A stretch of DNA of 14,195 nucleotides from Candidatus Heimdallarchaeota archaeon (lineage in GTDB: Archaea > Asgardarchaeota > Heimdallarchaeia > Heimdallarchaeales > Heimdallarchaeaceae): positions 1 to 14,195 of the forward strand of contig JAEOTE010000156.1 of the NCBI GenBank assembly GCA_016839945.1, written 5' to 3'. The translations under genes were made by a program, and so were the position numbers. Under the pieces are notes generated by a model. The model saw only the letters and a program-made list of their open reading frames with translations. It searched no databases and had not been told where the DNA came from. Below are positions 12,666-14,195 of the stretch, piece after piece (position 1 is the first letter of the stretch; each line of letters starts with the position of its first letter).

Positions 12666-12710
12666 TGTTACAATTTTCCAGATTTTCTCTTCTGGTGGAA
12701 AAAAGTAACA
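12666..12710. promoter_or_regulatory. Long inverted repeat abutting the BRE/TATA of the peptide gene, candidate operator
   Basis: TGTTAC-aa-TTTTCCA (12666-12680), N15, TGGAAAA-aa-GTAACA (12696-12710); 13 of 15 positions complementary. Confidence 0.5.
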
Positions 12711-12713
12711 ATA

Positions 12714-12763
12714 TTTAAATAGAAGATGAAAAAGTGTAATCTTGAGCTTTATTGGCTGGTGGA
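12714..12763 (+). promoter_or_regulatory. TATA box (TTTAAATA 12714-12721), predicted TSS about 12744, and SD (GGTGGA 12758-12763) of the repeat-peptide gene
   Basis: Canonical archaeal spacing; the SD lies 8 nt before ATG 12772. Confidence 0.6.
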
Positions 12764-12771
12764 TAATAGAA

Positions 12772-13002
12772 ATGAAAAGTAAAACTAAGAAATTACTTGG
12801 CGTATTATTTGTAGTATCATTTATTGGAATAACAGCAAGTGTGATCGCTTGTGCAGGTCCAACAGGTGGATATCCTGATGAACCCTTAGGTCATACTGCA
12901 GGTCCAACAGGTGGATATCCTGATGAACCCTTAGGTCATACTGCAGGTCCAGACGGGGGATATCCAGACGAACCGATTAGTCATACTCGAATATATGTAT
13001 AA
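12772..13002 (+). CDS. 76-aa secreted precursor peptide with three tandem 15-aa cores
   Basis: MKSKTKKLLGVLFVVSFIGITASVIAC + AGPTGGYPDEPLGHT x2 + AGPDGGYPDEPISHT + RIYV. Good SD and TATA. Copy 3 carries four synonymous codon changes, which supports coding status. Confidence 0.85.
   Translation: MKSKTKKLLGVLFVVSFIGITASVIACAGPTGGYPDEPLGHTAGPTGGYPDEPLGHTAGPDGGYPDEPISHTRIYV
12852..12986 (+). repeat. 3 x 45-bp tandem repeat (coding)
   Basis: 12852-12896 and 12897-12941 are identical; 12942-12986 is diverged. Confidence 0.97.
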
Positions 13003-13045
13003 TGTGTAAAAAAATTCATGCTGACGTGAAATAATCGCCAGAAAA

Positions 13046-13400
13046 ACCCCACCCCTTTCCTCGGCGAGAGAAGGAAACCTGGGGCGTCTTAGAGAGGTCA
13101 TAGACGCCCATTAGGTTTTCATAAGGGGTGATATCCACAAGCAAATAGAACTCAAGCAAGGGGTAAAAAACGGGTCAAACCGAAAAAAAACTTTCGAGGT
13201 CTATAACTGAGAGAAATCCTACGAAGGCAGAAATCCTTGGGGATTTTTCATAGAGATCTTGTACAGAGTTCGCTACGTTGAATCTACGTGCAGGTTCTCC
13301 TGATCGAATTCTGTACGCTTGATCTCTTTGTCAGTTTATCTATCTTGACCCTACAATCTATCTATCCACCAACCAACCATAGAAATATGGGGGTCAAAAA
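13046..13400 (+). ncRNA. Large structured non-coding RNA / cis-regulatory leader of unrecognised family
   Basis: At least 10 nested helices found by eye, e.g. 13050-57/13123-30, 13073-81/13112-20, 13082-89/13102-09, 13172-78/13345-51, 13205-10/13331-36, 13252-58/13321-27, 13261-72/13305-16. G-U pairs work only on the + strand. Visibly GC-richer than other intergenic DNA here. Confidence 0.7.
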
Positions 13401-13401
13401 A

Positions 13402-14195
13402 ATGGAAAAACTTGAAAACATGACAAATTCAGACAAAAGAATACTGCAAATCTTGCAGAATTATCCACTAGAACCTTTTTCTTCAATGGCAAAGAGAGTG
13501 GAAATTTCTCCACAAACAATGATTCGAAGAGTAGAGAATCTAAAGAGTCGCAATATACTTCGCAATGCTATAGCCTCTTTCGTCCCTGAACGTATTGGTC
13601 TTACTAGATTTAGCGTTATTTTTGATATTTCTCAACTCCACCAGTTTACGCTTTTACAAAACGCTATTTCTGAACACAATTACATACGTGCATACAATCG
13701 ATTTTATGGCGAAAAGTTTGGCATACAAGCAAATTTCGATGTCCCAATGAATGTAAATGGAGTATTCACAAAATTCTTAGATTACTTAGTAAACGAAGAA
13801 TTCTGTGATGGTTATACCATATTCAAATCTAAAGGTCATCGTTTTTCTAAGCCAGCACCTATAACTATCTACAGTCAAGATCCAGAACCTTTTGATATCA
13901 TTTCATTCTGGCAAAAAAGAGTTAAAGCCAATTCTGAATTAAATGGTGTTAGAAGCGCTGTGACTGTTAAAAACGGAGAAATCATTATTGTGACTGATGA
14001 AGGAGAAAAACCCATTGAACCTTTACATCTAAGACTACTTCGAGATCTAACACGAGAAACTGCAAATGGACATAGGATTGGAATTCGCACACAACAAACA
14101 GAGCTAATTAATAACTACAGAGATCTGTATAAAAGCTTAGGTAAGAAAATAAGACTTACACCTTCAGAAGAGCACTTATTCAACAACCTTAGCGA
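13402..14195 (+). CDS. Lrp/AsnC-family winged-helix transcriptional regulator, probably tandem-domain (partial, more than 264 aa)
   Basis: Hand translation is open to the window end: MEKLENMTNSDKRILQILQNYPLEPFSSMAKRVEISPQTMIRRVENLKSRNILRNAIASFVPERIGL (Lrp HTH + linker), a RAM-like domain, then a second helix-1-like segment PIEPLHLRLLRDL. SD GGGGGT at 13389-13394. Alternative in-frame ATG at 13387. Confidence 0.88.
   Translation, partial: MEKLENMTNSDKRILQILQNYPLEPFSSMAKRVEISPQTMIRRVENLKSRNILRNAIASFVPERIGLTRFSVIFDISQLHQFTLLQNAISEHNYIRAYNRFYGEKFGIQANFDVPMNVNGVFTKFLDYLVNEEFCDGYTIFKSKGHRFSKPAPITIYSQDPEPFDIISFWQKRVKANSELNGVRSAVTVKNGEIIIVTDEGEKPIEPLHLRLLRDLTRETANGHRIGIRTQQTELINNYRDLYKSLGKKIRLTPSEEHLFNNLS

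Follow-up and report, generated by a model that had tools for sequence, protein, structure and literature searches.

Signal peptides followed by tandem copies of a short peptide are familiar from precursors of secreted signals, and the question raised by this locus is what a 76-codon gene of that build is doing in an Asgard archaeon. The gene (P0001) lies toward the 3′ end of the stretch of Candidatus Heimdallarchaeota DNA analyzed here, 14,195 nt in all, which we refer to as the window. An earlier note on the same DNA had read it as a pheromone- or RiPP-like precursor. Eukaryotes, whose closest known relatives are the Asgard archaea, make wide use of multicopy pro-hormones that carry a signal peptide; to the best of our knowledge, peptide-based communication has not been described in Archaea. 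Is P0001 such a precursor, and where does its repeat come from?

Gene Structure and Expression Signals

Translation of P0001 begins with MKSKTKK, continues through a hydrophobic stretch of 19–20 residues that ends in VIACA, and runs on into three 15-residue units and a closing RIYV, which bears out the earlier description of a basic N-region and a hydrophobic H-region followed by repeats. Tandem Repeats Finder places the array at 12852–12987, with a period of 45, 3.0 copies, and a score of 212. As had been noticed before, the first two units are identical in DNA; the third differs from them by four synonymous codons (GGT>GGG, CCT>CCA, GAT>GAC, and CCC>CCG) and three replacements (T>D, L>I, and G>S), the very counts given in the earlier note. 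Neither Lys nor Arg occurs from residue 8 to residue 72, so dibasic sites (KR/RR) are absent between the repeats, again as described. No family in Pfam or NCBIfam covers P0001.

The mechanical list of open reading frames begins this frame at an upstream TTG (12742). We place the start at ATG 12772 instead, because the Shine-Dalgarno site and the TATA box that go with it are kept in relatives; the TATA box, TTTAAATA, occupies 12714–12721, ∼50 nt 5′ of this ATG. With TATA box, Shine-Dalgarno site, start codon, homologues, and motif all conserved, the comparative evidence is that 12772–13002 is a real coding gene. The features of the locus are collected in Table 1.

Table 1. Features of the repeat-peptide locus, in window coordinates
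Feature	Position	Strand	Basis or remark
Predicted archaeal promoter block GTAACAA..TTTAAATA (BRE/TATA)	12700..12721	+	Kept in 5/5 aligned loci
Shine-Dalgarno-like GGTGG, 9 nt 5′ of ATG	12758..12762	+	GCTGGTGGA invariant in the five-locus alignment
Putative exported repeat-peptide gene P0001	12772..13002	+	76 codons; stop codon counted in the coordinates
Predicted signal peptide, residues 1–28 (n-region MKSKTKK and hydrophobic region)	12772..12855	+	Aligns with parent-family signal peptides
Repeat unit 1, AGPTGGYPDEPLGHT, residues 28–42	12853..12897	+	Translation and Tandem Repeats Finder
Repeat unit 2, AGPTGGYPDEPLGHT, DNA the same as unit 1	12898..12942	+	DNA reading and Tandem Repeats Finder
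Repeat unit 3, AGPDGGYPDEPISHT	12943..12987	+	Differs from the other two units by 4 synonymous and 3 replacement changes
C-terminal tail RIYV and stop codon	12988..13002	+	Tails vary across the repeat-peptide family
Conserved spacer, ∼400 nt	13003..13401	+	Structured-RNA-like element at about 13030–13290
Tandem Lrp/AsnC-type protein, 5′ part, 264 codons	13402..14195	+	Pfam HTH_AsnC; gene cut by the contig end

Export Signal and Predicted Maturation

Judged by its n-, h-, and c-regions, the N-terminus of P0001 is a Sec-type export signal. The −3/−1 rule predicts a signal peptidase I site at A26-C27-A28/G29, and cleavage there would leave a mature peptide of 48 residues. Signal peptidase I fits the family at large, since the residues in front of the first GP are small at −1 and −3 in nearly all repeat peptides (ACA, VVA, VNS, VFS, and ATS). 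The parent proteins, the secreted sandwich proteins described below, align as carrying canonical cleavable signal peptides that end in V-x-A.

An alternative reading of the same residues is a lipobox. In an archaeal lipobox, the signal peptide closes with the motif [LVI][ASTVI][GAS]C (PMC13631571), and V24-I25-A26/C27 of P0001 matches it. Only the closest relatives (P0002–P0004) retain the Cys, whereas the other members in the genus lack it, most of the family having VVAGP, LNAP, or VNSGP at this position. Lipoboxes are also rare in the genome, where 5 of 307 signal-peptide-like N-termini match, compared with 2 for a reversed-motif control. We rejected a lipoprotein identity for P0001 on these two grounds, nonconservation of the Cys and rarity of the motif, despite the match itself. 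Some lipobox-type lipoproteins may exist in this archaeon, rare though the motif is; on the minus strand of another contig (G000:C28), two adjacent genes have classical lipobox N-termini (..FISGC). Two further kinds of signal were considered. A class III (pilin-type) signal was rejected by eye, there being no Gly or Ala ahead of the hydrophobic stretch, and a PEP-CTERM/archaeosortase signal was rejected for want of a C-terminal transmembrane helix.

Within the array, the unit borders vary by species (HTA/GP, GGA/GP, SGG/GP, and, in G005, FKE/DP), and no cleavage site between units is conserved across the repeat-peptide members. The junctions of signal peptide and unit 1 (ACA/GP and VNS/GP) resemble most of the inter-unit junctions (HTA/GP and GGA/GP).

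A Repeat-Peptide Family within One Genus

The protein database contains three to four relatives of P0001, which have two or three units. When 60 related genomes were searched at the protein level, matches came from 17 of the 24 that belong to the same genus, with nothing convincing beyond it. On DNA, the pattern DEPxG..DEPxG, with cores spaced 18–48 nt apart, was found in 14 of 400 genomes of the phylum, its own genome included, and all 14 are of this genus; the reversed pattern gave 0 matches in the same 400 genomes. Judged from these matches, the family does not extend, in the searched genomes, beyond a single Heimdallarchaeaceae genus. A metagenome scan for GYPDEPxG returned 99 stretches. 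Among the 80 listed, one alone (L130) has several matches, four in number, and it is a true family member with four units; single matches were judged to be due to chance.

The earlier note had suggested a pattern search for variable copy number, and copy number does vary: members of the family have 2–7 units, each of 13–20 residues. Both the core motif and the signal peptide are kept in the homologues, the loss of both having been named in the earlier note as grounds for refuting its reading. Copy numbers in draft genomes are to be read as lower bounds because repeats break assemblies. Arrays are seen at contig ends in the drafts G014 (C116/C138), G013 (C147), G019 (C274), and G011 (C93/C102), the loci being L019, L041, L024, L027, and L026.

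Two subtypes of unit can be distinguished, GP-x-GG-(Y/F)-PDEP-(I/L)-G and GP-V-x-DEPIG-x(3-8)-GGA. What is constant across units is DEP(I/L)G together with a Pro a few residues before it, and nothing else. The 52 cores compared draw on the full set of synonymous codons for D, E, P, I, and G, while replacements among them are rare, which argues for selection on the peptide and in this reading frame. The earlier claim of selection on GGYPDEP thus stands as far as selection at the peptide level is concerned, but the invariant core is narrower, namely DEP(I/L)G. In the signal-peptide region, pairwise dN/dS values are mostly 0.3–0.95, with one closely related pair above 1, consistent with a loosely constrained segment held mainly for hydrophobicity. 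None of the complete loci seen has an interrupted frame.

Origin of the Repeat Unit

Outside the genus, the closest homologue of the regulator encoded downstream of P0001 is P0007 (40% identity). Upstream of P0007, on the same strand, is the gene for P0089, a protein of 150 residues in which a signal peptide precedes a globular domain of ∼105 residues and YTFDPPDGIPDEPPDQW forms the C-terminal tail. The relatives of P0089 all end in similar tails, for example FDPPGGSGDEPIGGGVSP; P0089–P0092 are examples of the family, P0090 being entered at NCBI as a “hypothetical protein” of a Candidatus Heimdallarchaeaceae MAG. Proteins of this parent family (∼150 residues) are found in 24 of 31 Heimdallarchaeaceae genomes and in all 5 of the 5 genera searched, with 1–6 copies per genome. 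The signature of the globular domain, a predicted beta-sandwich, is YCDLDxDGxEDD ... G-WY ... FDPP, and the single tail that follows reads FDPP-GG-x-x-DEP-IGGG, with variants of the form DPP/DPT-GG-x-PDEP-I/P-GG. A tandem-Lrp gene lies directly 3′ of the sandwich gene in 19 of 20 fetched loci, the remaining locus being cut by a contig end. A more distant regulator (26% identity), from a metagenome contig of 1.13 Mb, likewise has the sandwich partner 15 nt upstream.

In a multiple alignment (A4), the tails FDPPGGSGDEPIGGGVSP and FDPPDGFPDEPPD align with PTGGYPDEPLG of the window unit. By this alignment, the repeat unit shares its ancestry with the tail that a secreted beta-sandwich protein has once, at its C-terminus, and this tail origin of the repeat is what is new here. 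The sandwich domain itself is absent from P0001. A 30-residue remnant of it survives only in two genomes, G005 and G018, whose peptides keep the last-strand remnant TDYTFDLREDPTGGFPDEPIGG before the repeats and so are intermediates. In a tree of 38 regulators (quick search, midpoint root), those linked to repeat peptides form one clade with an SH-aLRT value of 100. Grouped with it are regulators from other genera that are paired with sandwich proteins bearing DEP-type tails; the genus’s own sandwich-linked regulators, associated with PDYP-type tails, fall in a separate paralogue clade.

Because of the tail alignment, the two intermediates, and the regulator clade, the simplest history would be a single event at the base of the genus that removed the globular domain, copied the tail in tandem, and added a structured spacer of ∼300 nt. 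A beginning of the motif as a hormone-like core was ruled out, since the motif is the amplified tail of a folded secreted protein. In the present genome, which is 88% complete and has two regulator paralogues at contig ends, no sandwich paralogue was found at E ≤ 0.01.

A structural model of the parent protein (pLDDT 85.6) consists of an N-terminal helix and a beta-sandwich of seven to eight strands. The tail is placed with pLDDT 84–95 and ends in a short strand, which suggests that the motif can act as a docking element. Fold searches with the sandwich model returned just generic Ig-like, PKD, ApaG, or GH2-type sandwiches and gave no functional lead; Pfam has no family for the protein, and a protein-atlas feature search with it returned hypothetical archaeal clusters only. 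From the model, the parent looks like a small extracellular sandwich protein.

The Double-Lrp Neighbor

The gene that follows the spacer probably starts at the ATG at 13402 (MEKLENMTNSDKRIL) and not at GTG 13288, where the mechanical reading frame begins; the ATG matches the starts of homologues and is preceded by GGGGTCA. Wherever a repeat locus has enough flanking sequence (9/9), the order is peptide gene, spacer, and regulator, all on the same strand. Upstream neighbors differ from locus to locus. The regulator homologues in repeat loci are 457–479 residues long and contain an AsnC-type HTH, and the model of a full-length homologue shows two tandem Lrp/AsnC units (pLDDT 87.7, pTM 0.86). At the sequence level, the N-terminal unit matches Pyrococcus PH0061 (2dbb) with an E value of 5.5e-14.

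The best PDB match of the model is NirDL (4ch7), a fused siroheme decarboxylase, followed by single Lrp regulators. NirDL likewise has two HTH-plus-RAM units in one chain, and the match extends over 412 alignment columns; the neighbor differs from it in being 11% identical, in having extra helices between the units, and in its disordered C-terminus. By predicted fold, the neighbor would be of the Lrp/AsnC type and is a candidate regulator, though it may instead be an enzyme. A complex prediction for the double-Lrp protein of G004 (alignment A5) with its own mature repeat peptide gave a score of 0.00, below the mark, and weighs neither way.

Pfam and NCBIfam searches of the window reading frames and the conserved neighbors found no protease, modifying enzyme, or peptide importer (Opp) conserved near the repeat loci; the earlier remark that the window holds no modifying enzymes agrees with the Pfam scan of its reading frames. 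Beyond the window end, three genes 3′ of the regulator are common within the genus (L011:2311-4735 and L017:3656-6035). Two of them, for a ∼205-residue protein with 2 TM segments and a ∼122-residue HTH-like protein, are both on the opposite strand, and the third encodes a protein of ∼370 residues whose TM segments number at least six and whose C-terminal domain is soluble. This trio is not found beside the out-of-genus homologue (L057).

A Structured Spacer between the Genes

All repeat-peptide loci have a conserved spacer, of about 350–400 nt in the nine with enough flanking sequence. The structured element within it is absent from the ancestral sandwich/regulator pairs, whose gaps measure 15–350 nt. 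When the nine-locus alignment (A2) was folded with RNAalifold, 14 of 32 predicted pairs kept their pairing through changes on both sides. The spacer contains the blocks AATCGCCAGAAA-CCCCACCCC, GGGGTCAAACC, and TTAGAGGTCTA as well as a hairpin, GGGGCGTC..GAGGTC..GACGCCC, with compensatory changes. Rfam has no match in the window or the spacer, and the genome contains just one copy of the element. We rejected the idea that it is an SRP RNA or RNase P RNA out of place, both RNAs being found elsewhere in the genome. We note that the archaeal SRP RNA model matches G000:C61:71-247, near a contig start, over positions 97–278 only and with 52 bits (cutoff 96.5); this SRP RNA gene may be truncated by the assembly, or it may be unusual.

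Comparison with Known Systems

With the sandwich proteins P0001 has in common the type of signal peptide, the tail motif, and the position directly 5′ of a tandem-Lrp gene, and the partner regulators of both group together in the tree. It differs from them in lacking the ∼105-residue domain and in having three copies of the tail instead of one, and its locus has a structured spacer of ∼400 nt in place of a short intergenic gap.

Among bacterial peptide systems, the RRNPP cassettes of Bacillota (Rap-Phr, PlcR-PapR, and NprR-NprX) and the arbitrium pair AimP-AimR of phages provide a genetic layout to set beside it. There, as in all nine of the repeat loci, the gene for a small exported pre-peptide adjoins that for a cytoplasmic DNA-binding protein, and several cassette paralogues occur per genome. 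The neighbor here is, however, a tandem Lrp/AsnC protein whose model contains no TPR-type peptide-binding domain, no Opp importer is encoded in the neighborhood, and the ancestral partner is a folded protein.

Kex2-processed fungal proteins (alpha-factor and the ustiloxin type) and the plant CEP/CLE precursors resemble P0001 in combining a signal peptide with tandem units rich in Pro and Gly. The repeats of P0001 differ from theirs in having neither dibasic sites nor evident sequence homology to them, in their prokaryotic host, and in their derivation from a protein tail. Unlike precursors of cyanobactin-type RiPPs, P0001 has no genes for modifying or processing enzymes among the window reading frames or conserved neighbors, and its N-terminus is a Sec-type signal rather than a cytoplasmic leader peptide. 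The parallels with CEP, alpha-factor, and Phr drawn in the earlier note are to be taken as analogies only.

Possible Function of the Peptide

With moderate confidence, we regard P0001 as an exported, disordered, and acidic peptide that presents its motif multivalently and is coexpressed with the regulator. The signal peptide would be removed after A28 or, in this species, at the lipobox Cys27, and a strongly acidic, disordered peptide of ∼48 residues would then be released or tethered outside the cell. Its repeated DEP(I/L)G would act as a multivalent copy of the tail and bind whatever the tails of the sandwich proteins bind, for which cutting into single units would not be required. The double-Lrp protein encoded downstream would be expressed along with the peptide and would probably control its expression.

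A different role, possible but in our view doubtful, is that of a multicore signaling precursor, which would be exported, cut at the unit borders into peptides of 13–20 residues, and sensed by the double-Lrp protein after these reenter the cell, much as in RRNPP systems; multiplication of the unit would then raise the signal dose per transcript. Multiplied units beside a regulator are the expected look of such a precursor, and the combination of a signal peptide with near-identical tandem units in variable number is readily accommodated. So are the invariable placement next to a DNA-binding protein whose RAM-type domains are ligand-binding, the multicopy gene pairs whose tails differ between paralogues, and the likeness of the signal-peptide/unit-1 junction to most junctions between units. 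Against this, neither dibasic nor other conserved cleavage sites are present and the borders vary by species, nor is a protease, a modifying enzyme, or an oligopeptide importer conserved nearby. The candidate receptor is of the Lrp/AsnC and not the TPR type, and the solved ligand complexes among its matches hold amino acids; moreover, the ancestral partner is a folded domain of ∼105–120 residues, which is unlike a pro-peptide. Of the pheromone- or RiPP-like precursor proposed earlier, the real gene, the Sec-type signal, and the tandem units are therefore retained, but the conserved borders, dibasic sites, and nearby processing genes that would go with it are missing.

Retention at the cell surface, with the hydrophobic segment kept as a signal anchor or with Cys27 lipid-modified so that the acidic repeats are displayed, seems distinctly unlikely to us. 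A hydrophobic stretch of ∼20 residues can span a membrane, the V-I-A-C sequence shared with P0002–P0004 fits the archaeal lipobox (PMC13631571), and two other N-termini in this genome have a clear lipobox (ISGC). The absence of the Cys from most family members and the scarcity of lipoboxes (5/307 vs 2 reversed) speak against lipid modification, as do the small −1 and −3 residues before the first GP, which fit signal peptidase I in nearly all members. Less probable still is that the peptide has no function and that its reading frame is a regulatory upstream ORF, whose translation or export acts in cis on the regulator through the structured spacer. The two genes are on the same strand with no obvious oligo-T terminator after the stop codon of the first, and the conserved structured spacer joins them; a functionless product is, however, hard to reconcile with purifying selection at the amino acid level on DEP(I/L)G under free synonymous change, with a conserved export signal, and with a motif inherited from an already conserved protein tail. 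That P0001 is a decaying, functionless remnant of a sandwich-protein gene we find scarcely credible: the globular domain has been lost, but every complete locus seen keeps an uninterrupted frame, start signals are conserved, expansion of the units occurred independently, and the collected members retain the motif.

Implications

Whatever the function of P0001, the locus clearly illustrates the birth of a microprotein gene, in which a folded secreted protein lost its domain while selection maintained the multiplied copies of its short tail; a sister lineage still has an intermediate form. A two-gene module of an exoprotein and a double-Lrp protein, as yet unnamed and widespread in Heimdallarchaeaceae, is also marked by this locus. 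Keyword searches of the literature found no published description of the peptide or of the gene pair.

A bolder proposition is that P0001 is the precursor of a diffusible signal sensed directly or indirectly by the double-Lrp protein, and that the sandwich/tandem-Lrp pairs constitute an Asgard system for cell–cell signaling by peptides. We consider this unlikely on present evidence. Were it true, it would be the first peptide-based signaling system in Archaea, with an Lrp-type receptor in place of a TPR-type one. The locus provides a candidate that can be synthesized, 15-mers around DEP(L/I)G, together with a candidate cognate DNA-binding protein.

Further Tandem-Lrp Loci

Three more tandem-Lrp paralogues are encoded in the genome that contains the window (G000), at C126:1-1077, C92:6201-7208, and C62:88267-89352 (L049–L051), two of which are truncated 5′ where their contigs end. 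Encoded 68 nt upstream of the C62 regulator, on the same strand, is a different exported protein of 289 residues (L051:2660-3529:-); it has a signal peptide and a PT-rich linker, and its C-terminus consists of a transmembrane helix followed by KRKRKK. On a 14.5-kb metagenome contig (L082, JGI 3300033156), two tandem-Lrp genes stand back to back with a 4-nt overlap and are followed by the gene for the sandwich protein P0092 and by a 445-residue gene with no family assigned; a subtilisin-like (Peptidase_S8) gene adjoins this cluster.
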